NCBI RefSeq assembly: GCF_000940845.1
Contig: NZ_CP010341.1
Location: forward strand, 450,001 to 482,000
DNA from: Propionibacterium freudenreichii subsp. freudenreichii
GTDB lineage: Bacteria; Actinomycetota; Actinomycetes; Propionibacteriales; Propionibacteriaceae
Reading direction: 5' to 3'
Length of the DNA: 32,000 bases
A program made the translations under genes and the position numbers. Below the pieces are notes generated by a model. That model was given only the letters and a program-made list of their open reading frames with translations. It searched no databases and was not told the origin of the DNA. Positions 16,389 through 30,535 of this stretch are shown piece by piece (position 1 is the stretch's first letter; every line of letters starts with the position of its first letter).

Positions 16389-17495
16389 TCAGCCGTCGTC
16401 GCGGCCGTCCTGCTTGCCGCCCGCATCGACGAACTCCTGCACGGCCCGGGCGAAGGACACCAGGGGGTTGTCGGCAGGGGGCGTCGGGGCGTCGTGTCGC
16501 GAGGTGCTGGCGCCCACTCGTGTGCCGGCGGGCCGCGCTGTTGCCGGCACGGAGAACCAGGCCAGGTCGAGGCGCACCGGCTTGCCCCATCCCGCGGAGC
16601 GTTGCGCCATGGTCGACATGGTGGTCGCAAAGTCCTCTGCGCTGCCGAAGACGAGCGTCCAGGGCAGCGTCGCCTTGAACAGGGCGGATGCCCCGGCAGG
16701 GTCGACCTGTTCGGGACGCAGCGCGTCCAGGTGGCGTCGGTAGGCATCGAGGTCGTCCAGCAGGTGGTTGCCCAGGGCCGAGCGTGGCGCACGCAACCGG
16801 CCCAGGGAGGCCAGCAGGAGGCCGCCGGCCACCACCAGCAGCGGCCCGACCATGGCGCTCCACTTGCTGGTGGCCATCACGTCGATCGCGCTGATCACGG
16901 CCAGCACCAGGCCCACGATCGTCAGCACCCCGCCGACCCAGCCCCACGTGGTGTGGTGGTCATGCGGGTCGCGATGGAACCAACCCAGCCGGGTGCCCTC
17001 GGCGCGCAGCGCCTGACGGGCCTGCGACAGGGGCTCCGAGTGGTCGGCCAGCAGCAGGCCGAGTCGCACGCTGGGGCGTGGCGTCCGCTCGTCGGTGCCG
17101 GGCACCGGGGGTGCGGTGAAGATGGCTGCCAGCACGGCCCGGTCGGCCTCGGGGAGGTCGGCGTCGGCCTTCTGGGTGCGTTGCATCTGCCAATCGGGGG
17201 CTCCGGCCCCCTGCGCGGTCAATCGGGTGATCTGCAGGTATCCGCGGGCGGCCAGGTCGGCCAGCGCCACGAACACATCGCGCATGTCGGTGCGTCCGTT
17301 CAAAAGGGCGCCCGCCAGGCCGGGCTCGACGCCGGCGGGAGGTTGATCGTGGGTCGTGGGCGCGATGAGTCCCGGATCGACGTCGGGCAGGGCCTGGTCG
17401 GCACGGTGGCGACGTCGGGTGATCGTGTAGACCGTCGCACTGAAGACGGCGACGACCACGCCGAATACGAGCATGATCAGTTCTGCCTGGCGCAC
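16389..17495 (-). CDS. DUF2207-like membrane protein
   Basis: It has an N-terminal TM, the DUF2207-like block PPAGVEPGLAGALLNGRTDMRDVFVALADLAARGYLQI, and two further TM helices. The start is set at GTG 17495, preceded by GGAGGGG-5 nt. The track ORF (to 17711) would overlap purC. Confidence 0.6.
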   Translation of the reverse strand: MRQAELIMLVFGVVVAVFSATVYTITRRRHRADQALPDVDPGLIAPTTHDQPPAGVEPGLAGALLNGRTDMRDVFVALADLAARGYLQITRLTAQGAGAPDWQMQRTQKADADLPEADRAVLAAIFTAPPVPGTDERTPRPSVRLGLLLADHSEPLSQARQALRAEGTRLGWFHRDPHDHHTTWGWVGGVLTIVGLVLAVISAIDVMATSKWSAMVGPLLVVAGGLLLASLGRLRAPRSALGNHLLDDLDAYRRHLDALRPEQVDPAGASALFKATLPWTLVFGSAEDFATTMSTMAQRSAGWGKPVRLDLAWFSVPATARPAGTRVGASTSRHDAPTPPADNPLVSFARAVQEFVDAGGKQDGRDDG

Positions 17496-17592
17496 GCGAA
17501 CCCCTCCTGCCCGAAAGACTAGACAGTCACGGGGGTGACCATGTGGAACCGCGCGGCAACGGACAGCACCGGTTCCGCGTAATCTGGGCCCC

Positions 17593-18471
17593 GTGAAGCA
17601 CGCCCAGTATGCGAACCTCGGTCTGCCCCTGATCCACGCCGGAAAGGTGCGCGAGCTGTTCGACCTGCCCCGCGAGCCGGCACACCTGCTGATGGTGGCC
17701 ACCGACAACATCTCGGCGTTCGACTATGTGCTCGATTCCATGATCCCCGACAAGGGCGTCGTGCTCACCCAGTTGTCGCTGTGGTGGTTCAAGCAGTTGG
17801 GCGACATTGTGGACAACCACGTGGTGAGCACCGACGTACCCGACGAGGTGGCCGGTCGCGCGATCGTCGCCGAAAAGCTCGACATGGTGCCGGTGGAGTG
17901 CGTGGCACGCGGCTACCTCACCGGATCGGGCTGGGCCGAATACCAGGAGACGGGCTCGGTCACCGGCATTGCGTTACCCGCCGGCCTGCACGACGGTTCC
18001 CGGTTGCCCGAGCCGATCTTCACGCCGGCCACGAAGGCACCGATGGGCGAGCATGACGAGAACGTCAGCTTCGACCAGATGAGCCGCACGGTGGGCTACG
18101 ATACCGGGGCGGCCATTCGCGACCTGACCCTGCGGCTGTATGCCAAGGCCGAGCAGATCGCGCGGGAGCGTGGCATCGTGCTCGCCGACACGAAGTTCGA
18201 GTTCGGGCGTCGCCCGGATGGCGTGCTCGTGCTGGGCGATGAGGTGCTGACGCCGGACTCGTCGCGCTTCTGGGACGCCGACGCCTACGAGGCGGGCCGG
18301 CTCGAGAGCTTCGACAAGCAGTACCTGCGCGACTGGCTCACCCACGATTCGGGATGGGACCGCAGCAGCGGCGAGCGTCCGCCGGCGCTGCCTGACGCCA
18401 TCGTCACGGCCACTCGCGAGCGCTACTTGGAGGCCTTCGAGAGGCTGACCGGTGCGCCGTTGGCGCTGTGA
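17593..18471 (+). CDS. purC: SAICAR synthetase
   Basis: PurC blocks are present: LIHAGKVRELF, ATDNISAFD and LADTKFEFG. Confidence 0.9.
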   Translation: MKHAQYANLGLPLIHAGKVRELFDLPREPAHLLMVATDNISAFDYVLDSMIPDKGVVLTQLSLWWFKQLGDIVDNHVVSTDVPDEVAGRAIVAEKLDMVPVECVARGYLTGSGWAEYQETGSVTGIALPAGLHDGSRLPEPIFTPATKAPMGEHDENVSFDQMSRTVGYDTGAAIRDLTLRLYAKAEQIARERGIVLADTKFEFGRRPDGVLVLGDEVLTPDSSRFWDADAYEAGRLESFDKQYLRDWLTHDSGWDRSSGERPPALPDAIVTATRERYLEAFERLTGAPLAL

Positions 18472-19556: not shown

Positions 19557-20255
19557 TCAATCGTTGAGATGGGCGAGTGCGTAGTCGGCCTCGGCCTGGG
19601 TGAACTTGCCGCCGTAGCTCGAGGTGAGCTGGTCGTGGATCGCGGCCGGTGACATGTTCAGCGTCGACTGGTAGCTCTTGGCGGCCGCCAGCGCGTTCGC
19701 GTTCCAGTCGGCCTTCACGTTGTCGATGGCGTACTGGGCGGCCGGGGCACTGAACTGCTCGCCGTATTCCGACACCAGCTGGTCGTAGACCCCCTGCTTC
19801 GACATGTGCATCATCGACCCGGCGTACGAAGCGGCCTTCTTGGCAGCCGATTGGTACTCAGGGGGCACGGCCGGCTGTGCAGCAGTGGTCGGCGCCGCCG
19901 CCTGGGTGGTCTTCGGCGCCGAGGTGGTCGCAGGGCGGCTGGTGGCCGTGGTCGCAGGCTGCGTCGTCGACGATGACGTCGAGGACGACGAAGACGAATC
20001 CGAGCCCTTGGTGAGGCCCTGGCATCCCGCGATCACCGCGATGAGCACGACAACGGCGATCACGATGTTGCGCACGGTGTGCTTCTTCTTGCCTTGGCCT
20101 TCCGGCGACTGCGGCGGCTGCCCGCCAGCGGGCGGCTGCGGGGGCACGGGTGGTTGGCCGCCCGGCGGGGGCGGCTGCGTGCCCGACGGGGGCTGGAAGT
20201 CCGGCTGGCCCTGCGGCTGGTTCGGGTAGGGCGCATCTGGTGGGTTGATGCTCAT
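19557..20255 (-). CDS. Membrane-anchored protein with two Ltp-type (host cell surface-exposed lipoprotein) repeats
   Basis: The context is GAAGGAG-5 nt-ATG. The order is a P/Q/G-rich N-terminal segment, one TM ending in IAGC, a Ser/Thr/Ala linker, then two Ltp-like repeats (SMMHMSKQGVYDQLVSEYGEQFSAPAAQYAIDNV and LNMSPAAIHDQLTSSYGGKFTQAEADYALAHL). Confidence 0.7.
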   Translation of the reverse strand: MSINPPDAPYPNQPQGQPDFQPPSGTQPPPPGGQPPVPPQPPAGGQPPQSPEGQGKKKHTVRNIVIAVVVLIAVIAGCQGLTKGSDSSSSSSTSSSTTQPATTATSRPATTSAPKTTQAAAPTTAAQPAVPPEYQSAAKKAASYAGSMMHMSKQGVYDQLVSEYGEQFSAPAAQYAIDNVKADWNANALAAAKSYQSTLNMSPAAIHDQLTSSYGGKFTQAEADYALAHLND

Positions 20256-20433
20256 GGGAGCTCCTTCGCTCGCGGCGATTTGCCGATAGCCAAGAAGCTA
20301 GTGAGCACCTCTGACAGTTTTCGGACGCCGGGGGCCGCCACGCGCCGCCACGGGGCCGGGGACGGCCCTTCAGAGCAGACTCACTGCGCTGAAGGACCGA
20401 TGGCTCCAGATCATGTCAAGGGCATCCAGTCGG

Positions 20434-21531
20434 CTACACGTACCGTCGCGCTGCTTCCCGAATCTCGTCCGCGTAATTGTAGATGTCTTGGATCTGCTCG
20501 ATGGGCAGACGAGTTTCGGTCTTGTCTTCGTCGAGCAGCCCGATCGACTTTGCTTTGTGGTCAAGATGCAGGCGGCAGATGGGCTTGCGGTTGTTGTCGT
20601 CGACCAGAATGCCAAAGTAGGACTTTGCGTCGCGATAGAAGATGCGGTCCCAGTTGATTTCGGATGCTGCGACGGCGCGGACGATCTGGAATCCTTCGAG
20701 TTCCTCTTCTGTGGTGATGACGCCGGGCTTTTCTTGGTTTGTTGTTTCGCTTTGGGGGGCAGTCTCCTCCGGGCTCGCATCGGTTGACGAGGCGACCACT
20801 CCTACCGCGGGAGCTTGATCTTGCAGGGCAGACTTGAGTCGTGCATTTACGCGGTCATTGAGGAACTGTTTCGTTGCTTTGCCGACTAGCGGGTGGAAGA
20901 AATCGCGGACCCTGGCTGTGATTGATCCCTCGTACACATGCGCAACAATCAGGCGCAGGAAGTCGTCATCAGGCTCTTCGAACAGGGCGGCTAGGGTCTT
21001 CTTGATGCTTGAAACGTATTTTAGCTCTTCCGCGGCCGTGAGGACTGAATCAAGATCAAAGCTCTCCCTGGTGAGCTTCTTCAGCTCTGGGAGAATGTAG
21101 GGATCAATGTTGGTGAGGTCAAGCAGCAAGAATGGCTTCTCGTCCATCTTGTTCGGCTCATCCAGATCGGTGAAGAACTCCCACGTCTTTCCATTCGTGA
21201 GAACTCCGATTCGTGCGCTTGATACGTGAAAATATCGGAACAGTTGTGATGCATTGTTGAGACTGAGGGGCTCATCGATTCTCTTGCATTCGATCAGCAC
21301 CTGCACCTCACCGTTGCGGCGGATGGCGTAGTCAATTTTCTCGCCCTTTTTCGTCCCTACGTCGGTCGTGAATTCCGGCGTTACTTGGGTTGGATCGAAT
21401 ACGTCGTAGCCGAGCACTTTGGACATGAATGGCATGATGATCGCGTTCTTGGTGGCTTCCTCAGTGTCCAAGGTGTTTCCGTAGTCGCCAATCCGACTTG
21501 CGATGTCTTCAAGTGCGTCTTCGAAATCCAT
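20434..21531 (-). CDS. HsdR N-terminal-domain (PD-(D/E)xK, Mrr-like) protein, stand-alone, uncharacterised C-terminal half
   Basis: The context is AAGGAG-9 nt-ATG. HSDR_N-type blocks are TEEATKNAIIMPFMSKVLGYD, KIDYAI, VLIECKR, QLFRY and VLTNGKTWEFF. There is no helicase module. G+C and codon usage are visibly lower than in neighbouring genes. Confidence 0.75.
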   Translation of the reverse strand: MDFEDALEDIASRIGDYGNTLDTEEATKNAIIMPFMSKVLGYDVFDPTQVTPEFTTDVGTKKGEKIDYAIRRNGEVQVLIECKRIDEPLSLNNASQLFRYFHVSSARIGVLTNGKTWEFFTDLDEPNKMDEKPFLLLDLTNIDPYILPELKKLTRESFDLDSVLTAAEELKYVSSIKKTLAALFEEPDDDFLRLIVAHVYEGSITARVRDFFHPLVGKATKQFLNDRVNARLKSALQDQAPAVGVVASSTDASPEETAPQSETTNQEKPGVITTEEELEGFQIVRAVAASEINWDRIFYRDAKSYFGILVDDNNRKPICRLHLDHKAKSIGLLDEDKTETRLPIEQIQDIYNYADEIREAARRYV

Positions 21532-21995
21532 TATGACCGACTCCTTGGTCGTGGTGCGATCGGCGTTGGCTTACCCCGGTCGGGGTGGCACGCAGCAATT
21601 TATCAAATGGAGCGACGGTGTGCAGGCAGTGTGGCAGATTCATCTCGGTCTGCGAGTTTCCAGTCACGTCGATGATCGCGGAGAGTGCGGGGCGACGGTC
21701 GGATGTGAAGGCACCAGTGTCAGCGGCCCTCATATCAATGGGAGAGTTTGGGGTCGATCTCTCTCAGCGCGGACGGCTACGAGGTGGCGGGCGGACTGGC
21801 GCATCTCTGCGGAGCAGCCAACGGGAGCTTCGTGCCGGGCGCAACGCCTGAGGGACGAGCCTCATTGCCGCGGGGACACGAGCACCGGTATCGTCGCACG
21901 AGGCCCTGCCAACGGACGTCCGCGCCACCCCACGAGGTGACCGCCTGCTCGCCGGTGGACCACATCGTCAAGTGTGGAAAAGAAGTGCATGAAGC

Positions 21996-23279: not shown

Positions 23280-23305
23280 TCGCGCAGTTGCTTCACGATT
23301 TCCCG

Positions 23306-23350
23306 GACGATGGGGGCCGCTCCGATGAGGGGGCGGCTCCCATCGTCTTT
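23306..23350 (+). terminator. Putative intrinsic terminator between convergent genes
   Basis: A 15-bp stem with one mismatch (gacgatgggggccgc at 23306..23320 against gcggctcccatcgtc at 23333..23347) is followed by TTT, 27 nt after the MFS stop. Confidence 0.5.
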
Positions 23351-23364
23351 CGTCGGGCGGTGGA

Positions 23365-24300
23365 TCAGGAGATGACCAGGACCCTGGTGATCGTGTAGGT
23401 GGCGGACTTCATTGCGTCCATCTTGTCGGTGTCGATGTACTTGAAGGCAATCTTGTCGGTCGCCCGCCCGGCATCCAGGTCGGGGATATAGATCGAGTCG
23501 GCGTTGACCTCCATGCCGTTCGCGTTGACGGCGGAGATCGAGATGTTGTAGCTCTGGCGCTGCTGGCTGATATTCGTCACCGTCACGGGAACGGACGACC
23601 AGTCGGATTCGGTGCCGGGGGTGAAGTTGCCGAACGAGACGCGGACGTCATCCCTCAGTGCCCGCTGGGTCTCGGCGTCGGCGGAGGGTGCGGGCTGGCC
23701 TGCGTTTGCCGAGGCCAGGATGCTGTTGGCGGCGCTGGCTGCGGCGTTCTTGAGCGGGCCGTAGACGGCGACCGTCATGACCACGGAGAGGACGAGCGCG
23801 ACGACGCCGAAGGCCATGGAGATGATCGCCGTGGCGCCGTGCTTCTTCACCAGGCCGACGATGCCGAGCACGATGGCGGCGAGGCCCAGTGCCATGGCCA
23901 TCGGAGGTCCGGCGTTGGGCACCAGGGCGGCGACCACCGCGATGATGCCGAGCACCAGGCCGACCATTGACAGGTTGCCCTTGCGGGGTGGCGTCTGTTG
24001 CCGGGGCTGCTGGTCGGCAGACTGCTGGAACTGGTCCTGCTCGTAGGAGGCTTCCCGGTACTGGGCGTCTTGGTAGGGCGTCCCCTGGTATTGGGCCTCT
24101 GAATAGTCGGACTGCGGCGGTGTTCCCTGGTATCCGCTCGGCGGCGTGGTCTCGTCCGGGGCCTGTGGTGGCGCTGCCTCGTCGGGGCCCTGCTCGAAGG
24201 GCTGGCGGTACCGGGTCTGGGAGAAGGGCTGGACGTACTTGCCCTGCCGTCCGCCGGGTTGCGACCAGGGCGGCGGGGTCGCCTTGTCTCTCTTGCTCAT
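23365..24300 (-). CDS. Membrane protein: P/Q/Y-rich tail, DUF4190-like TM region, DUF4352-like C-terminal ectodomain
   Basis: The context is GAGGAG-8 nt-ATG at 24300 (MSKRDKATPPPW). TM helices are GLVLGIIAVVAALV, LGLAAIVLGIVGLV and AFGVVALVLSVVMTVAV. The beta-rich C-terminus reads VPVTVTNISQQRQSYNISISAVNANG. The track ORF (to 24456) was trimmed. Confidence 0.65.
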   Translation of the reverse strand: MSKRDKATPPPWSQPGGRQGKYVQPFSQTRYRQPFEQGPDEAAPPQAPDETTPPSGYQGTPPQSDYSEAQYQGTPYQDAQYREASYEQDQFQQSADQQPRQQTPPRKGNLSMVGLVLGIIAVVAALVPNAGPPMAMALGLAAIVLGIVGLVKKHGATAIISMAFGVVALVLSVVMTVAVYGPLKNAAASAANSILASANAGQPAPSADAETQRALRDDVRVSFGNFTPGTESDWSSVPVTVTNISQQRQSYNISISAVNANGMEVNADSIYIPDLDAGRATDKIAFKYIDTDKMDAMKSATYTITRVLVIS

Positions 24301-24727
24301 GGGGGGAGCTCCTCGGGTGGGCGCCGCGGCCGGGACGCATGCCGCGCTGCGAAATATAGTGGCCGGCCCCCGGATCGGGAAGGAGCCACCGGCAATCGTG
24401 ACTGAACCGGGCACGGGCCCGATATGTGCATGGCTGCGTGTCCGCCGGGGATCCATGGGCGTGGGCGGGGCGGTGCACCGGCTGCAGGTTGCCAGCCGAG
24501 GGGCTCATTTCGCTGGCTGGTTCGTCCTCGGGGGTGTCGGCGTCCGGTCGTGGGCTGTGATCGGTCCGGGTTGCCGTGGTGACAGCCGACCCACGACGGG
24601 TGATCAGGGGTTCTGGTCTGGGCAACGGATGGGGATTTCCGGTTTGGGTGCGGCGATCCTTCGCGGCGTTGCGCACCGCGACGCCCCATCGGGCGGAGAA
24701 TGGCGGGGCGAGAAGGAGATGGGCGAT

Positions 24728-25537
24728 ATGTCCGATCAACAGTTTCCGGCAGGCCCGAACGGGACGAATCCGCAGGGGCCGGGAGACGTCGGCCCCCAGG
24801 GTGATCCCGGCGGCACGGTCAAGATGCCCCCGGTGTCCGACCCCGGTGGCGGAGCCGGAGGTGGCCATTCGCCCAGCGTTGTGCCAACGATTGTCATCTC
24901 GCTGCTGTTCGGCGTTTTCGGTGCCATTCCCGCCGCCATTGCTGCGGCGCATGTTCGCCAGCCGGGGCGCCGCAAGTCTGTCTACTGGTGGAGCTTCGCG
25001 CTGTCGTGGCTGGTGCAGTTGGTGGTGGGCGTGTTGATCGCCGTGCTGGTCTTCGGGGCGTCGCCCGCGAAGGTCGCCGCGGGGCTCGCCGGAAGCTCCA
25101 GCCCGTCGGCGAGCAGCGCGTCACCGAGTGGGGCGGCGTCGGCGAGTTCGGCCGCAGCGAGCGTGCCCGGGCAGACGACGGCTCCGGTCACGACGGTGCC
25201 CGCCCAGACCCCTGGTGCCGTGGCTCCGGGTGCGGCGGAGACGCCGGCTGCCACCGCCACGCAAGAAGGCAGGATGCAGGCGCAGTGGCGCGAGTCCGGG
25301 TTCACCATCTGTGGGCAGGACCTTGCGGTCAACGGCAACACCACCTGTGATTTCGGCACCGCGGTGCACGACGCCTACAGCCAGGCCGTCGGTGGCGCCT
25401 ACGGCAGCTACGGCAGCGCCAAGACCGTCGAGGCGAAGGACGCCGAGACCGGCGGTACCTCGACGATGTCATGCACCTCGGGCACCGGCGGCATCTTCTG
25501 CTCCGGCGACAATGGCGTGACGGTGGTGTTCGACTGA
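24728..25537 (+). CDS. Membrane protein: G/P-rich tail, 2 TM, Ser/Ala/Pro linker, 4-Cys C-terminal ectodomain
   Basis: The AAGGAG at 24713..24718 is 9 nt from ATG 24728 (MSDQQFPAGPNG). ATG 24719 directly abuts the SD. The C-terminus has the cysteines TIC..TTC..MSC..IFC. No family recognised. The track ORF from 24146 was trimmed. Confidence 0.6.
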   Translation: MSDQQFPAGPNGTNPQGPGDVGPQGDPGGTVKMPPVSDPGGGAGGGHSPSVVPTIVISLLFGVFGAIPAAIAAAHVRQPGRRKSVYWWSFALSWLVQLVVGVLIAVLVFGASPAKVAAGLAGSSSPSASSASPSGAASASSAAASVPGQTTAPVTTVPAQTPGAVAPGAAETPAATATQEGRMQAQWRESGFTICGQDLAVNGNTTCDFGTAVHDAYSQAVGGAYGSYGSAKTVEAKDAETGGTSTMSCTSGTGGIFCSGDNGVTVVFD

Positions 25538-25589
25538 CGAGGTGCTTGTGGACGGCGCATGAGCCTGCTTCCGGTGGTCCTTCCGCCGA

Positions 25590-25620
25590 CGCGAGAGAGA
25601 GACATGAAACCTCTCTCGCG
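25590..25620. repeat. Perfect 10-bp-stem hairpin; its left arm plus loop resemble the 3' end of tRNA-Leu (candidate distal att remnant or terminator)
   Basis: The arms are cgcgagagag (25590..25599) and ctctctcgcg (25611..25620). By hand alignment, 25590..25613 matches tRNA-gene positions 30546..30567 in the same orientation with 20 identities, 2 mismatches and two 1-nt gaps. Confidence 0.35.
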
Positions 25621-25712
25621 GCATGGTCACCTGGCGGGGAGAGTCCTTCATGGGCAGCGCGAAGCCGCATGTCCTGGGTGTGAGGGGACCCTGACGCCCG
25701 CAGCGGCAGGGC

Positions 25713-25932
25713 TCATGCGCCGTAGCGGAGTGTTCCGGTCTTCGCCTCGGGGATTTCGGGTGCGATGTGTCTCAGACGAGCTGGGAGACACGGCCTCTGG
25801 ATCCCGAGGATCGCGGCCGAATCGTTGACAGACAGCCCCTCGGCTCGAAGGCGTCGAGCGGCAGCGCACAGATGTGCGGCTGCGCGGGTTCGCGACGCTC
25901 GCAGTAAGAGGGGTCGCGAACGTCATTGACGG
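25713..25932 (-). pseudogene. Start-less fragment encoding an HTH-like segment (possible relic of a mobile-element regulator or recombinase)
   Basis: The minus-strand open frame has no ATG/GTG/TTG start. It reads ..AAARRLRAEGLSVNDSAAILGIQRPCLPARLRHIAPEIPEAKTGTLRYGA*. The pattern resembles the ..G.S...IA..LG.S..TV.R.L.. HTH of IS, resolvase or sigma region-4 type. It is not in the ORF track. Confidence 0.3.
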
Positions 25933-25981
25933 TAGGCTCCCAGTCACGTTGGACACCTCAGGGTTGAAAGAGGAGGGTGTC

Positions 25982-26212
25982 ATGCTTGATGTCAATGATC
26001 TGGATGAGGCCATTGCTCGCGAGGTTGAGCCGTATTTGACCGTGGAGAGTCGAGCGCTTATCCGGTCGGGTCGCGATGAGGGAGATCCTGATTTCGTCGT
26101 CTATATGACGCTACAGTTCGCGCTCCTGGATAGCGTGATCATCCCGATGGACATTCTCGACGCGATCGCGGTCGACCTGGCGGATGACGGGGGCGTTTGT
26201 GGACGCAGATGA
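25982..26212 (+). CDS. Hypothetical small acidic protein (76 aa)
   Basis: A strong SD (AGGAGG-5 nt-ATG) precedes 25982. The protein reads MLDVNDLDEAIAREVEPYLTVESRALIRSGRDEGDPDF... No family recognised. Confidence 0.5.
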   Translation: MLDVNDLDEAIAREVEPYLTVESRALIRSGRDEGDPDFVVYMTLQFALLDSVIIPMDILDAIAVDLADDGGVCGRR

Positions 26213-26252
26213 GGGCTCCGACTGGACCGTGTGGGTGGGACGTGCCGGTTCG

Positions 26253-26771
26253 TTAGTTCGGGAGGTTCCAGATCAGCACATCACCGTCCGAATTCGAATA
26301 GCGAAGCTGTTGCAGTGGTGCCGATGCGTCAAAAGCAAGCCAGCCCGTCACGCAGGTGCCGGGATCAACTGCAGGCTCGTCGCTGAAGCCTTGTGGGTAG
26401 GCGGGTTTCAACTCGGTTTGCCCAGAATTCTCGGACCGGTACCGTCCACCTTCCGCGTCGAACGCGGTCCATCGTTCGCTCGTCACCTGAATTGCCTGCG
26501 AAGTGTTGTTGCACAGATTTGCCTTGACGCCCTGGTAGTTGAAGGACCCTTTGATGCCGACTGACTTTCGGTCGTGGATGCTTATCGTGGTTCCGTGGGC
26601 TTCGGCTGGCTGACCAATGGCCAGCGCTGACTGGGTCGGCGAAGTAACCGCTGGTGTCGAAGAATTGCCACTTGAGCGTGCGGTAGTGGTGCTACCGCCG
26701 GTTGATCCGCACGCGGTGAGCAGCAGGGGCGCTGTAACGGCTACTGCCAGGAGTAGGTGGATGCGCTTCAT
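26253..26771 (-). CDS. Lipoprotein, DUF4352-like beta-sandwich domain (tentative)
   Basis: The context is GAAGGA-9 nt-ATG. The signal peptide MKRIHLLLAVAVTAPLLLTAC carries a lipobox and is followed by a Ser/Thr-rich linker and a beta-rich domain (GTTISIHDRKSV.., GWLAFDAS). Confidence 0.7.
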   Translation of the reverse strand: MKRIHLLLAVAVTAPLLLTACGSTGGSTTTARSSGNSSTPAVTSPTQSALAIGQPAEAHGTTISIHDRKSVGIKGSFNYQGVKANLCNNTSQAIQVTSERWTAFDAEGGRYRSENSGQTELKPAYPQGFSDEPAVDPGTCVTGWLAFDASAPLQQLRYSNSDGDVLIWNLPN

Positions 26772-26801
26772 GGTGGGGTTCCTTCAGGTTGGTGGGTTGC
26801 C

Positions 26802-27907
26802 GGTGGTGTCATAGCGTCGAAGCAACACTCCCGGTCGGCGGGGGTCTGATCGGTGGAGTGTGCGGATGGCGCGGGTGGGGTTGTCGTTCAGTGACAGGTC
26901 GGAGATCTCGACGGCCTCGAAAGCGGGCTGGTCGGTGCGGAGGATCGCCCGTCACCTGGGGCGTTGCCCGTCGGTGATCTTGCGGGAGCTTCACCGGAAC
27001 TCGACGAAGACCCGCGGCTACCAGGCCGTGACCGCAGACGTCAGAGCGCAGCGTCGGCGGGCTCGCCCGCAGCAGCGGAAGGTCGCGGGGGATCCGGTGC
27101 TGCAGGCGAGGGTGGAGGCGGATCTGGCCGCGTCGTGGACGCCGAACGAGATAGCGGGCCGGTTGCGTCTGGAGGCGACAGACCCGACCGTTGAACGCAT
27201 GGCGAACTCTGCTGACGCACGCGGCCGAACCGTCTCCGGTGAGGCTATCTACCAGTACATCTACGCAATCCCGAAGGGTGAGCTCGCCCGCAAGGGCATC
27301 TTCCTGCAGTCCAAGCGGACCAAGCGCCGACCACGTACGACCGGGCGGACGCGCGGTGGCCCAATCGTAGGTATGGTCCCGATCGCGGAGCGAGGTGAGG
27401 ACGCCGCCCAGCGTCGGGTGCCGGGGCACTGGGAGGGTGACCTGATCATCGGGAAGAACGGCACCTCGTGCGCGGCGACGCTGGTGGAGCGGATGAGCGG
27501 GTTCACCGGGCTGCTGGCCCTGTCCTCGAAACACGCCGAGCCAACCGCTGACGCGGTCATCGAGTTTTTCAACGACTTGCCCGAGATGATGAAGGCATCG
27601 TTGGCGTGGGACCAGGGCAGCGAGATGGCCCAGCACGCGAAGGTCTCCCTGGCCACGGCGATGCCGGTCTACTTCGCCGATCCCCACTCGCCCTGGCAGA
27701 GGCCCAGCAACGAGAACACGAACCGGCTCTACCGGGAGTATCTGCCCAAGGGCACGGTGATCCCCGATCACCAGCCCTACCTCACCACCATCGCCGAGGA
27801 GATCAACAATCGACCCCGCCGCCGACTGGGCTATCTCACGCCCACCGAGGCATTCGCTCGACTGCTCGCCGGCGAGCCCCATGTTGCTTCGACGCCTTGA
27901 CATCGCC
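26802..27907 (+). mobile_element. IS30-family insertion sequence (1106 bp) with imperfect terminal IRs and putative 3-bp GCC target duplication
   Basis: IRL at 26801..26827 (cggtggtgtcatagcgtcgaagcaaca) matches the reverse complement of 27882..27908 (cggcgatgtcaaggcgtcgaagcaaca) at 23 of 27 positions by hand. If the ends are taken as 26802 and 27907, GCC flanks both sides (26799..26801 and 27908..27910). IRR overlaps the 3' end of the transposase gene. Confidence 0.85.
26860..27900 (+). CDS. IS30-family DDE transposase
   Basis: An N-terminal HTH (GWSVRRIARHLGRCPSVILRELHRN) is followed by the DDE blocks GHWEGDLI, AWDQGSEM and PWQRPSNENTNRLYREYLPKG. Confidence 0.9.
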   Translation: MRMARVGLSFSDRSEISTASKAGWSVRRIARHLGRCPSVILRELHRNSTKTRGYQAVTADVRAQRRRARPQQRKVAGDPVLQARVEADLAASWTPNEIAGRLRLEATDPTVERMANSADARGRTVSGEAIYQYIYAIPKGELARKGIFLQSKRTKRRPRTTGRTRGGPIVGMVPIAERGEDAAQRRVPGHWEGDLIIGKNGTSCAATLVERMSGFTGLLALSSKHAEPTADAVIEFFNDLPEMMKASLAWDQGSEMAQHAKVSLATAMPVYFADPHSPWQRPSNENTNRLYREYLPKGTVIPDHQPYLTTIAEEINNRPRRRLGYLTPTEAFARLLAGEPHVASTP

Positions 27908-28365
27908 GCCTGTGTTCGGGAATCTATCGGGCAGCTAGGACATAACTCTGATTTGAGCGTCCTGCGGTGGTTTGGCTGATCGGCATGCGAGCGGGGGCCG
28001 GGGCTGGAAGGAATACCGAGATGTGCGGCAACTCGCCAGCCGGGGGGAGCCGGTTGCTGCGAGTCGTGACGCGACCAAGGGGCGCCCTCGCGCCGGCCCC
28101 CCGATGGTGGTGGTGCGTGCGCCGAAGGGCGTTGAGGGGTCGATGTTGATCCTGATGGCGCTGGCTGTCTCTCCGAGCAGGAGAAACAGCCAGCGCCGTA
28201 CTTCTGCTGCAGCCTGTGAGCAGATGTGGCGCGGGATGTGATCGCGACAAGGGGAGGGATGATCGCGGCCTAGGTGTGGCTCATTTGCCGGTGGACGGTG
28301 CTGAACAACCTATTCGAGGGCCATGTTGATTCTAGGGATCTGCACCCCCAGAATCCCGTTGGCCG

Positions 28366-28371
28366 TAGAAT
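28366..28371 (+). promoter_or_regulatory. Candidate -10 hexamer TAGAAT, 6 nt upstream of the GTG start (possible leaderless transcript)
   Basis: TAGAAT at 28366..28371 fits the actinobacterial TANNNT -10 consensus. There is no SD between it and GTG 28378, and no convincing -35. Inference only. Confidence 0.25.
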
Positions 28372-28377
28372 GCGGAT

Positions 28378-28590
28378 GTGGCTCTCCGTTTCCGTAAGCG
28401 CATCAGGCTTGGCAAGCATGCCTGGGTCAACCTGTCCAAGTCGGGCCCGTCCCTTTCTGCCAAGGCCGGCCCCTTCACACTCAACAGCAAGGGGAAGGCA
28501 ACGACGCATTTGGGGCCGGGGTTGTCCTATCAATCCGACATCCCAACGCCAGCCACCGGGGCCGGAACATCCAAGACGCGAAAGGGATAA
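28378..28590 (+). CDS. DUF4236 domain protein (70 aa)
   Basis: The N-terminus (M)ALRFRKRIRLGKHAWVNLSKSGPSLSAKAGPFTLNSKGKATTHLGPGLSY matches the DUF4236 pattern (FRFRK.I.LG.G.R.NLSK.G.S.S.G). GTG start. Confidence 0.75.
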   Translation: MALRFRKRIRLGKHAWVNLSKSGPSLSAKAGPFTLNSKGKATTHLGPGLSYQSDIPTPATGAGTSKTRKG

Positions 28591-28602
28591 GGTGCTTTTG
28601 GC

Positions 28603-29091
28603 ATGACTTCCAAGAAATCGCCCGAGCAGCGGCGGTGGGTTTTGGATCCCCCTAAGCGATTGGTCACTACTCTGTGGGCAATCGCACTGGTGATTACGGT
28701 CGTCGCGACTATTGAGTGGATTGCTCGTGGGGGTGCCGCCGGCATCGTGCCCGCAATAGGCGTAGTCGCGTGTCTCACCTTCTTCTTGTCTGCACGCGCA
28801 TTTGCGAAGGCTTGGTCGCACAGAAGCGTCAACAGCCATGAGGCGAGCATTCAGGGAAGGAAGGGCCAAGAGGTATCGCTGACCAGCGGGCTCCTCACGA
28901 ATGGGTCAAGTGTTCTCGTGCCGAGTCGGACCAAAATTGACACCACTGACCAAGCAAACGGAACTGTCACTGCGACGTTCAGAGCTGCGAAAACCACAAT
29001 GAAGCTCTCAGTAGCGCAGGAGCGCTGCGGCGACCTGAAGTCTTTCCTGGCTGAGTGCGAGGCTGCCGGCGCGGAGCTCGAGCAAGCCTAA
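28603..29091 (+). CDS. Hypothetical membrane protein (2 TM plus soluble C-terminal domain)
   Basis: ATG lies 12 nt after the DUF4236 stop. TM helices are LVTTLWAIALVITVVATIEWI and IVPAIGVVACLTFFLSA. The C-terminal ~90 aa are soluble. No family recognised. Confidence 0.55.
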   Translation: MTSKKSPEQRRWVLDPPKRLVTTLWAIALVITVVATIEWIARGGAAGIVPAIGVVACLTFFLSARAFAKAWSHRSVNSHEASIQGRKGQEVSLTSGLLTNGSSVLVPSRTKIDTTDQANGTVTATFRAAKTTMKLSVAQERCGDLKSFLAECEAAGAELEQA

Positions 29092-29108
29092 GTTATTGAA
29101 TGACCGGG

Positions 29109-29774
29109 CTATTCACAGGCCACGCCGTCGCCATCCTTATCGAGGTTTGAGCTGTAGCCCGGCTGTCCTCTGTGGAGGGGGGCTGCTCCTGCAGCGCGCA
29201 CCGCGGCGCAGTTCTTGTAATAGGTAGCAGGTTGTTATTGTACCGGTGCTGGTGCCGGATTCGCCTGCTGTTGTTGAGGCACTTGCGCGGGTTGTTCTTG
29301 TTCCTGTGTGGCAGCTGGTGCGGGACGTGGCGACGGCGACGGCGTCGGCGTGGGGGTTGGCGACTTGCTCGGTGTTGGGGTTGGGGTTGGCGTCGGTGTA
29401 GGGGTGGGGCTCGGCGTGAGCGTTGCGCTCGCGGTTGGACTTGTCGCCGGGGATGTCGCTCGAGTTGGAGCTGTTGCTGCGGAGGTCCCGCCGGCGACCA
29501 GAAGGAAAAACCCCCCTACAAGTGCTGAAACGATTACCCCGGTTCGCTGCCAAATGGGTCATCGCCCCGTCCGGGCGGGTAGAGGCGCAGTGGAATCTGA
29601 TTGTAGTTGCGAAGTCGTTGTGCTTGGGTCATCGCTTTCATCGTCAACCCAGAGTTCCCAGCCCTCCGGTGCCGGGGGCCATGAAGGGTCGGGATGCCAT
29701 CCTTCGGGGGGTTCCCATCCTTCGGGGGGTGTGGGCCAGGTGGGGGGGCGGATTGAAGCGTGCCATGTGGTCAT
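29109..29774 (-). pseudogene. Excalibur-domain membrane protein gene interrupted by two in-frame stop codons (TGA 29559..29561, TAA 29235..29237)
   Basis: A single minus-strand frame (all codons in the same phase) reads MTTWHASIRPPTWPTPPEGWEPPEGWHPDPSWPPAPEGWELWV..ARTGR * PIWQRTGVIVSALVGGFFLLVAGG..TPSPTPTPTPTPTPTPSK..APAPVQ * QPATYYKNCAAVRAAGAAPLHRGQPGYSSNLDKDGDGVACE *. The last block is a textbook Excalibur motif. The TM/linker and Excalibur segments are absent from the ORF track because they have no start codon. Confidence 0.6.
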
Positions 29775-30491
29775 TATCTGACAAAGGCACGGGCGTCGTT
29801 GAAACGGCGGGCCCAAAGTCCGGACCCTTTGATGGGGGTCATCGTGACTACATGGGACCGTTCTGTTGCGATGACTCTTGTCGCTGCGTGCTCTGCATGC
29901 TCCGACAGTGAGTAGGCGCCGCTGATGGGGAATCCGATCCGCGGAGAGCCTACTGTGCTGCGTTGGACCGGTGGTCGGAAGCTTGGGGCAGGGTCAGGGT
30001 CAGGCAACAGATTGCGTTCGATGTGGCATCTAACAACAGTGTCCAGAACCCCCCACGTGGCGGGTGTGAGATGAGGTTTGACCAAATCTTGAGTCGGATC
30101 CTCTTGATCAGGCGCCCTATCCCGAAGTCGATCAGCACGAGGCCGCCTATCCCCATCAGCCTGAGGATCGGCGAGTAGTTTCCCGACGAACTGAAGTTGG
30201 TCACCAGTCTGAGAAGGACCACCTCAAGGATGAAGTATCGCGCGATCGACGGCGCGCTGGGTCTGAGGCAAACGTGCGGGCCGCAAGTGATACATCGTCA
30301 TGCAGCTTGCTGCGTCTTGTCGGAGGTGCACAGGGTGCGGGGTCGACGTGGCGAAGCGGAGCTGGGATTGCTCCCGTCGTGACGTTCGACTCGGTCGTGT
30401 CAGGTTTTGTCTCGGCCTTTTCCCCCCTCGCGAGAGGAAGGGTCGTCCGGGGACATGCTCTGCAGCGTCACATGCGGCGCCGAGTGACATG

Positions 30492-30535
30492 AAAAACCCC
30501 TCTGACTAGGAGTTTCACCTTGTCAGAGGGGTTTT
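30492..30535 (-). terminator. Intrinsic terminator downstream of tRNA-Leu
   Basis: The arm aaaaacccctctgac (30492..30506) pairs with gtcagaggggtttt (30522..30535), and inner agg/cct pairs leave a loop of about 7 nt. On the minus strand the stem is followed by TTTTT. The A-run on the other side makes it potentially bidirectional. Confidence 0.65.

Follow-up and report, generated by a model that had tools for sequence, protein, structure and literature searches.

Mrr-type and other solitary type IV restriction enzymes, among them nucleases fused to winged-helix or RAMA domains (discussed in PMC11037411), combine a PD-(D/E)xK nuclease and a putative discriminating domain in one polypeptide, and they have neither a cognate methyltransferase nor an ATPase. 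Here we describe a protein that shares this layout. It is encoded by a single gene at positions 20434..21531 (minus strand) of a 32,000-nucleotide stretch of Propionibacterium freudenreichii subsp. freudenreichii DNA (contig NZ_CP010341.1 of assembly GCF_000940845.1, positions 450,001 to 482,000), and we refer to this whole stretch as the window. In Mrr the order of the domains is the reverse of the nuclease-first order of the window protein. The window protein also differs in that its nuclease belongs to the HsdR-N/RecB type and has a QxxxY motif, and in that its second domain has an alpha-beta5-alpha arrangement and is neither a winged helix nor an SRA domain. For the nuclease part, the closest systems are the N-terminal domain of HsdR (EcoR124I and the Vibrio structure 3h1t) and the type IIG/ISP enzyme DrdV (7lvv), which have HSDR_N and the D...ExK and QxxxY motifs in common with it and are its best structural matches. 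HsdR and DrdV continue into helicase motors or methyltransferase/specificity modules and work within restriction-modification, whereas the window protein stops earlier and has no partners.

We believe that the window protein is best read as a solitary type IV-like, or otherwise self-sparing, restriction or anti-invader nuclease. It is a good but unproven candidate for that role, with a probability that we would put at roughly 45%. Judged from sequence, the evidence supports an active, solitary, accessory and horizontally mobile nuclease that is favoured by temperate phages, which carry it in a prophage-expressed operon. Our observations are the intact motifs, the domain layout, the polymorphism of the cassette that carries the gene, the lack of a partner gene, and a distribution over phages, plasmids and accessory genomes. 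By class we would call the protein, for which we found no functional description, a solitary restriction-type nuclease with a C-terminal domain that is not in Pfam. The gene and the parts of its product are as follows.

20434..21531, minus strand: coding sequence of the HsdR-N nuclease gene, 365 amino acids plus stop (open reading frame call, ATG start).
21112..21531, minus strand: PD-(D/E)xK nuclease domain of the HSDR_N type, residues 1-140 (PF04313 and Foldseek; predicted local distance difference test score, pLDDT, mostly 82-96).
21232..21462, minus strand: near-invariant catalytic motifs E24-E25-x-x-K28, D67, E81-x-K83 and Q96-x-x-x-Y100 (from alignments).
20815..21111, minus strand: helical middle domain, residues 141-239, with an invariant AAEELKYV and helices at 144-151, 160-185, 189-199 and 206-239 (pLDDT 83-95).
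20725..20814, minus strand: disordered, acidic, Ser/Thr/Pro-rich linker, residues 240-269, variable in sequence and length (pLDDT below 50).
20437..20724, minus strand: C-terminal alpha-beta5-alpha domain, residues 270-365, made of a helix, five strands and a helix (pLDDT 94.9 in a domain-only model).

An initial annotation of the window, made from the letters alone, had assigned the N-terminal ~140 residues to the HsdR-N type. This was confirmed by PF04313 (E=1.6e-12, 48.1 bits against a Pfam cut-off of 25.1), by PF13588 (E=1.2e-7, 32.2 bits, cut-off 25), and by structural matches. The AlphaFold model, built from 40 homologues, has a mean pLDDT of 84.6, and Foldseek matched its nuclease domain to DrdV (7lvv_B, E=1.7e-3, probability 1.00), 3ijm (E=6.9e-3) and the HsdR fragment 3h1t (E=2e-2, probability 1.00), all with modest E-values. 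E24-E25-x-x-K28, D67, E81-C-K83 and Q96-LFR-Y100 were invariant in an alignment of 40 sequences. In a larger set of 92 sequences, which includes phage and plasmid copies and several phyla, the catalytic motifs were at least 97% conserved, and 68 positions of the protein reached that level. Q96-x-x-x-Y100 we take to be the RecB-family motif described in the HsdR subunit of EcoR124I. From these motifs and the predicted fold, the nuclease looks intact.

The window protein is 100% identical to a P. freudenreichii protein (P0001) found by database sequence search. NCBI names members of the family, the identical protein included, "type I restriction endonuclease", while JGI uses "predicted type IV restriction endonuclease". 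Taken literally, the NCBI name would make the protein the restriction subunit of a type I restriction-modification system, in keeping with the N-terminal HSDR_N match; however, a protein of 365 residues has no SF2 helicase/ATPase motor according to Pfam, its model consists beyond the nuclease of a helical domain, a linker and a 96-residue domain, and HsdM and HsdS genes were neither present within 6 kb here nor recurrent among 248 neighbouring proteins elsewhere. We rejected the type I HsdR identity on domain content, consider it extremely improbable, and conclude that the NCBI name mirrors one shared domain only. The initial annotation had claimed that methyltransferase and specificity genes were missing from the entire window, and this held for the span that we checked: Pfam scans found neither of them, and no helicase gene, within 6 kb on either side of the nuclease gene. 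The protein is thus a nuclease without a cognate methyltransferase, as type IV enzymes are, both in this span and at the 83 and 64 loci surveyed elsewhere (discussed below).

The remaining ~225 residues had been described as having no function that could be named, and our searches led us to agree. Pfam at E<=10 gave no match for the middle or C-terminal segments, NCBIfam matched no family, and sequence searches of the PDB with the single protein and with a profile left the C-terminal half without a match. When the whole model was run against the PDB with Foldseek, nothing significant was found for the C-terminal half. The C-terminal domain by itself gave no significant match in the PDB (best E=0.07) or in BFVD (best E=3.9e-3, to unnamed proteins). 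In the 92 sequences the linker had no conserved column and a mean majority-residue frequency of 0.24, and the C-terminal domain had 17 of its 96 columns at least 95% conserved.

An exhaustive search placed the C-terminal domain in 1472 representative clusters. Its main partner is HSDR_N, which was detected in 40 of the best 150 representatives; about as many representatives are near full length, and most of the others are short enough to be fragments. Rare partners among the same 150 were TerD (2), SeqA-C-like (2), RAMA (1, E=2.7e-14), DUF4236 (1) and NAD_binding_4 (1, weak). RAMA owes its name to fusions with restriction nucleases and adenine methylases, and it has been proposed to read N6-methyladenine (PMC4738411). 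The RAMA and SeqA-C-like domains are confined to rare variants and are absent from the window protein. One protein, P0216 with 470 residues, gave no HSDR_N match and combines the C-terminal domain with DUF4236 and a long linker. In strains of P. freudenreichii, a DUF4236 gene is found ~6 kb away from the site of the cassette (L100 1-376, L104 1-262).

Relatives on the linear plasmids of Borreliella (for example Borreliella garinii lp36, L093 2980-4143) are similar in size to the window protein and homologous to it across the nuclease and the helical domain (hhalign probability 99.3 over residues 2-222), but they end in DUF5655 (PF18899) where the window protein has its alpha-beta5-alpha domain. 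This swap suggests, on sequence comparison, that the last domain can be exchanged. Both the swap and the rare RAMA, SeqA-C-like and TerD additions would fit a cutter that stays constant while its discriminating module varies, which is the layout that one would expect of restriction-type enzymes.

The gene sits in a DNA segment that some strains of the species have and others lack.

20366..21871, minus strand: strain-variable one-gene cassette of 1506 bp, G+C 0.558, made of a 340-bp leader, the gene and a 68-bp trailer (alignment of filled and empty alleles).
21532..21871, minus strand: leader of 340 bp, G+C 0.629, within the filled-only segment and carrying AAGGAG.
20363..20399, minus strand: hairpin with 16-nt arms and a 5-nt loop (inverted repeat I1) at the 3' boundary of the cassette.

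The locus with purQ, an Ltp-domain gene and an MFS transporter gene was found again in many P. freudenreichii assemblies. In two of these (GCA_030239825.1 and GCA_025187785.1) the nuclease gene is absent and the Ltp and MFS genes are retained. These empty alleles have 117 bp of unrelated DNA (G+C 0.70) in place of window positions 20366..21871, and the alignment shows flank identity of >99% up to 20365 and from 21872. The distance between the MFS and Ltp genes is 351 bp in the empty assemblies and 1740 bp in the filled ones. With the Ltp protein as query, the filled allele was seen in 6 of 8 P. freudenreichii places among the matches listed. The leader presumably holds the promoter; we did not find a strong sigma-70 consensus in its 340 bp. 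Reading the sequence directly, we found a Shine-Dalgarno AAGGAG at 21546-21541, 9 nt 5' of the ATG of the nuclease gene. The hairpin is the main stem-loop when the 100-nt 3' region is folded (minimum free energy of the whole region -44.3 kcal/mol) and is probably the terminator of the gene. Rfam found no RNA family in or around the cassette, and no non-coding element upstream or downstream of the family gene is conserved across genera.

The nuclease gene had been called AT-rich and horizontally acquired, together with its flanks, and we computed the composition across the window. Sliding-window G+C is 0.51-0.59 over 20251-21750 and 0.63-0.73 around it, and the gene itself is at 0.535 compared with 0.672 for the remainder of the window, so the dip is real. 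The flanks do not share in it: the upstream spacer is at 0.636 and the downstream spacer at 0.657, and as neither is AT-rich the dip is limited to the coding sequence. By codon position, the gene has a G+C of 0.587 at the first (GC1), 0.352 at the second (GC2) and 0.664 at the third (GC3), while neighbouring genes are at GC3 0.84-0.89 and GC2 0.42-0.56, except for the small purS (GC3 0.77, GC2 0.34). The GC3 of 0.664 is the minimum among the confidently called genes of the window, which agrees with the excess of A/T-ending codons that had been noticed by eye.

Not all of the deviation is foreign. In homologous loci, the gene was AT-richer than its flanks in 82 of 82 cases, by 0.10 on average. 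The deficit was still 0.07-0.09 in genomes where the gene has a fully host-like GC3 of 0.88-0.98, so we attribute about half of the dip to a conserved protein rich in Lys, Asp, Glu, Ile and Phe. The other part is genuinely foreign codon usage, and across the 82 loci the GC3 of the family gene is foreign in many hosts. The claim of foreign composition therefore stands for the codon usage, and about half of the dip is instead due to amino-acid composition.

Presence and absence between conserved flanks, together with the deviant GC3, make horizontal acquisition of the cassette strongly supported. In addition to the two conspecific empty sites, the copy in Propionimicrobium lies between rpiB and a cyclase gene, and the copy in Tessaracoccus lies at another locus again. 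The islet had been placed at 20256 to 21995, with the suggestion to look for an empty counterpart; the empty site exists, with borders at 20366 and 21871.

We also looked at how the gene behaves in other species. In E. coli it was present in 190 of 5426 complete genomes (3.5%), always on the chromosome, and 183 of the 190 copies were at least 99% identical. In the two strains that we examined, it adjoins HicAB in a variable region before aldB, and strain JNEC-KY202 has the empty allele, with HicAB and aldB kept and the family gene absent. The filled-only segment in E. coli is 1420 bp with a G+C of 0.31 and consists of a 301-bp leader, the gene (product WP_000061477.1) and 39 bp. It ends in a hairpin at the junction, and in the empty allele its place is taken by 103 bp of unrelated DNA. 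Two Pseudomonas-type loci with unrelated flanks (L074, OZ240079.1, flanks ~0.60 G+C, and L079, Pseudomonas brassicacearum) have in common a 1.3-kb gene-only segment at 90% identity. In both P. freudenreichii and E. coli, the unit that moves is a gene-only cassette.

A transposon or integrative element was considered and rejected. In the P. freudenreichii cassette we found no target-site duplication, no terminal or direct repeats at 20366/21871, and no recombinase gene, and the E. coli cassette is likewise a single gene without recombinase, terminal repeats or target-site duplication.

A word-indexed search gave at least 8000 clusters of full-length homologues, and the best 120 homologues had 97-100% query coverage and 56-69% identity. 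When one genome per species was scanned, relatives were found in at least 585 species. The actinobacterial hosts include Propionibacteriales, Actinomyces, Microbacteriaceae, Micrococcaceae, Glycomyces, Pseudonocardiales and Bifidobacterium, and the others include many Pseudomonas, Azotobacter, Thauera, Vibrio and several Enterobacterales. Median identity is 63% within Actinomycetota, 73% within Pseudomonadota and 59% between the phyla (maximum 66%), so identity tracks phylum only loosely. The window protein is a plain full-length member of phrog_4225 (E=2.8e-125, profile positions 2-354 of 357), which PHROG labels "endonuclease" as a bioinformatic category only. The gene had been called an orphan and a candidate for an undescribed function. 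Neither term holds at the sequence level, because the family is already catalogued, the protein is an ordinary member of it, and an identical protein is in the databases; a functional description in the literature is what we did not find.

Copies of the gene are also carried by phages and plasmids. Among phage records, 19 have the gene at full or nearly full length (90-100% of the query). Matches were also found in 48 plasmid records, and in 23 of these they span at least 80% of the query. One plasmid match is spurious, since NZ_CP134663.1 (L091) is filed as "plasmid unnamed1" and is evidently a 4.9-Mb E. coli chromosome. In six temperate phages (Streptococcus IPP25 and Javan316, Enterococcus EG-TP1, Corynebacterium Juicebox, Fusobacterium FNU_1P and Lacticaseibacillus P7.1), a CI-type repressor is on one side of the gene and the integrase on the other, both on its strand. 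In these phages an ImmA-type protease often adjoins the repressor. The same phage genomes carry RecT/RecE recombination genes, and the family gene is in the lysogeny operon instead. In a Clostridium plasmid-prophage it follows helix-turn-helix (HTH) regulators, in Porphyromonas phages it is in a moron cluster after HicA-HicB, and on actinobacterial plasmids RES, DUF4041 and MobF genes are near it. The slot in the lysogeny module is the one occupied by ltp in the Streptococcus thermophilus phage TP-J34, where that gene is transcribed in the prophage (PMC3952083). The products differ: Ltp, a lipoprotein of the cell surface, acts by blocking DNA injection, and the family protein would be a cytoplasmic nuclease.

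In E. coli and Porphyromonas phages, HicA/HicB toxin-antitoxin genes are neighbours of the family gene (L094 10908-11520; L089 5244-5881; L028 12777-13358), and some loci of Pseudomonas and Erwinia have HicB within 2 kb of it. As they vary in orientation and in the side on which they lie, the association looks like common residence in accessory regions rather than an operon.

The cassettes and the phage copies together bear on the idea that the gene is selfish, like a homing endonuclease, and cuts genomes that lack it so that repair copies the cassette in. In favour of this, the gene encodes a nuclease, is widely transferred, and moves as gene-only cassettes of 1.3-1.5 kb without recombinase, target-site duplication or terminal repeats, and in two species the cassette stands in for ~100 bp of unrelated DNA. 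However, the flanking genes and DNA are unrelated between taxa, hence there is no common target site, and some clades inherit the gene stably in synteny. The position after the repressor is constant in unrelated phages of different phyla, and this points to selection for expression in lysogens and not to sequence homing. For these reasons we consider homing quite unlikely.

The lysogeny module is also where many abortive-infection genes of prophages are found, and the window protein might be an effector of that kind, or of the toxin type, in which the nuclease is kept inactive until the C-terminal domain detects a phage protein or some other cue of infection, and indiscriminate DNA degradation then kills the cell before the phage cycle is complete. 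A stand-alone gene with no modification partner would fit, an acidic C-terminal domain that is unlike a DNA-binding one would suit a protein sensor, and HicAB, RES and Fic toxin genes adjoin in several contexts. Sensors of phage proteins usually diversify fast, though, and the C-terminal domain is conserved across phyla, as the fraction of conserved columns given above indicates. Furthermore, no antitoxin or inhibitor gene lies alongside, and the rare fusions are to domains associated with DNA modification and not to protein sensors. We regard abortive infection as unlikely.

On chromosomes, we surveyed the neighbourhoods twice. Clustering of 4448 open reading frames within 6 kb of 83 loci found no recurring partner gene. 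The clusters reflect lineage-specific synteny, chiefly of 13 Pseudomonas loci, and generic paralogue families. We rejected a conserved partner gene on this basis, as the only clusters to cross taxa at these loci were ABC-F, LysR, two-component and alcohol dehydrogenase (ADH) paralogues. The second survey took the two nearest genes on each side of 64 dereplicated loci, for 248 proteins. These matched 176 and 114 Pfam families in two scans, mostly of metabolism and transport. Among the 25 commonest families of each scan, no methyltransferase, specificity, helicase or integrase family was recurrent.

A gene that sits alone among housekeeping genes could be a domesticated nuclease of DNA repair or recombination, acting on a DNA structure that occurs universally, of use to cells as well as phages and not primarily immune. 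The protein has the RecB-type QxxxY motif and is unusually conserved for an accessory gene, and 13 Pseudomonas fluorescens-type loci, Glycomyces and Arthrobacter have it in synteny, apparently inherited vertically, with host-like codons. Against a repair role, the gene is patchy within species (3.5% of E. coli and missing in some P. freudenreichii strains), has foreign codon usage in many hosts and is borne by phages and plasmids, and phages keep it in the lysogeny operon and not next to the RecT/RecE genes of the same genomes. We would give repair the same small chance as abortive infection.

Returning to a self-sparing restriction nuclease, the mechanism that we propose runs as follows. P. 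freudenreichii acquired the one-gene 1.5-kb cassette horizontally, and the gene is one of a very large family that is passed around between chromosomes, plasmids and temperate phages. Its product would be a solitary restriction-type DNA endonuclease that acts without a methyltransferase, an ATPase or a partner protein, with the RecB/HsdR-type PD-(D/E)xK domain at the N-terminus cutting DNA. The helical and C-terminal domains, joined by the flexible linker, would set when or where cutting occurs. Discrimination would consist in recognizing a feature that resident DNA does not have, which may be a modified base of the kind that Mrr and other type IV enzymes recognize, or else a DNA structure or protein peculiar to invaders. 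Phage or plasmid DNA that enters would then be destroyed, and since the recognized feature is missing from resident DNA, the expressing cell or prophage would be unharmed. In this scheme we infer DNA as the substrate, a recognition role for the C-terminal domain, and a protective phenotype.

The role against mobile elements that had been suggested from the sequence is circumstantially supported, by the lysogeny modules of phages, the plasmids and the company of HicAB, but the chromosomal copies do not share it in the sense of lying in defence islands: no defence family recurs among the 25 commonest families per scan of the 248 neighbours. Several other findings weigh against our reading as well. 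The C-terminal domain has no recognizable reader fold in Pfam, PDB or BFVD, and in the window protein it matches no known reader of modified bases. Its isoelectric point is 5.0 and that of the whole protein is 4.7, an acidity that is unexpected in a DNA-binding module. The RAMA and SeqA-like fusions account for only 3 of 150 representatives, the SeqA matches are just under the Pfam cut-off, and reading of methyl-adenine by RAMA is biochemically unconfirmed (PMC11037411). PADLOC-DB v2.0.0 has no model for the family; the only match, of 16.6 bits, paired residues 61-132 with the nuclease section of a model for a type IIG enzyme. A literature search found no experimental result or published characterization for any member of the family. 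The nearest lead is a comparison of Campylobacter strains in which a 1044-bp HsdR-N gene, possibly of this family, was noted only in a phage-resistant strain and its role was left open (PMC8713573).

Two further points against a defence role concern evolution. At a median identity of 59% between Actinomycetota and Pseudomonadota, the protein has evolved very slowly for a defence gene, and in some lineages the gene is syntenic with host-like codons. Slow evolution and stable inheritance in some clades would suit a repair-type function or a universal ligand. The second of these leads to a wider version of our reading, in which the family is a new and very widespread class of single-protein immunity, carried in prophage lysogeny operons and as a free cellular cassette, whose alpha-beta5-alpha domain senses a universal hallmark of invaders or infection. 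Sensing of that kind would explain the ~59% conservation between phyla, in place of the diversification of an arms race. We think that this wider version is unlikely.

If the protein is protective, it would be a compact single-gene system of ~1.1 kb, spread over hundreds of species and the temperate phages of at least five phyla, and missing from the PADLOC v2 defence catalogue. The slow evolution suggests a target that is hard for invaders to change, which would be of mechanistic and practical interest. P. freudenreichii is a dairy starter, and natural filled and empty strains exist. At a minimum, the annotation of the gene is corrected and the borders of the cassette are exactly defined.

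The gene on the downstream side of the nuclease gene deserves a separate comment.

19557..20255, minus strand: Ltp-domain gene (PF07553, E=6e-42, two copies), 178 bp downstream of the nuclease gene and on the same strand.

On the opposite side, an MFS transporter gene lies 464 bp from the nuclease gene and is divergent from it, so the two spacers agree with the ~180 and ~460 bp given initially. Beyond the Ltp gene are purC, purS and purQ. The Ltp assignment was correct, and so was the shared strand; the suggested link to the nuclease was not. The Ltp gene has a host-like GC3 of 0.876 and is present in both filled and empty alleles, so it lies outside the islet. Among recurrent neighbours of the 83 family loci there was no Ltp-type cluster. 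We rejected a superinfection-exclusion module linked to Ltp, as the Ltp gene is retained where the nuclease gene is lacking and the locus is flanked by purCSQ and the MFS transporter, and we conclude that the adjacency is uninformative on the function of the nuclease.

Elsewhere in the window, the longest open reading frame for a DUF2207_C-type membrane protein (16389-17711, minus strand) overlaps the start of purC (17593-18471, plus strand) by ~120 bp; the start of this protein is uncertain, and public gene calls make it 368 or 440 residues. A second strain-variable segment is found near the cassette, at ~23300-27000 of the window and just past the MFS gene, where strains have one of two sets of small unannotated open reading frames (loci L096 and L110 versus L097-L103). 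There is also a second AT-richer stretch, at 25500-30500 of the window, with a G+C of 0.57-0.64. It has several open reading frames without a Pfam match, few of them with host-like codon usage, and an IS30-type transposase (HTH_38 and rve) at 26860-27900 on the plus strand.

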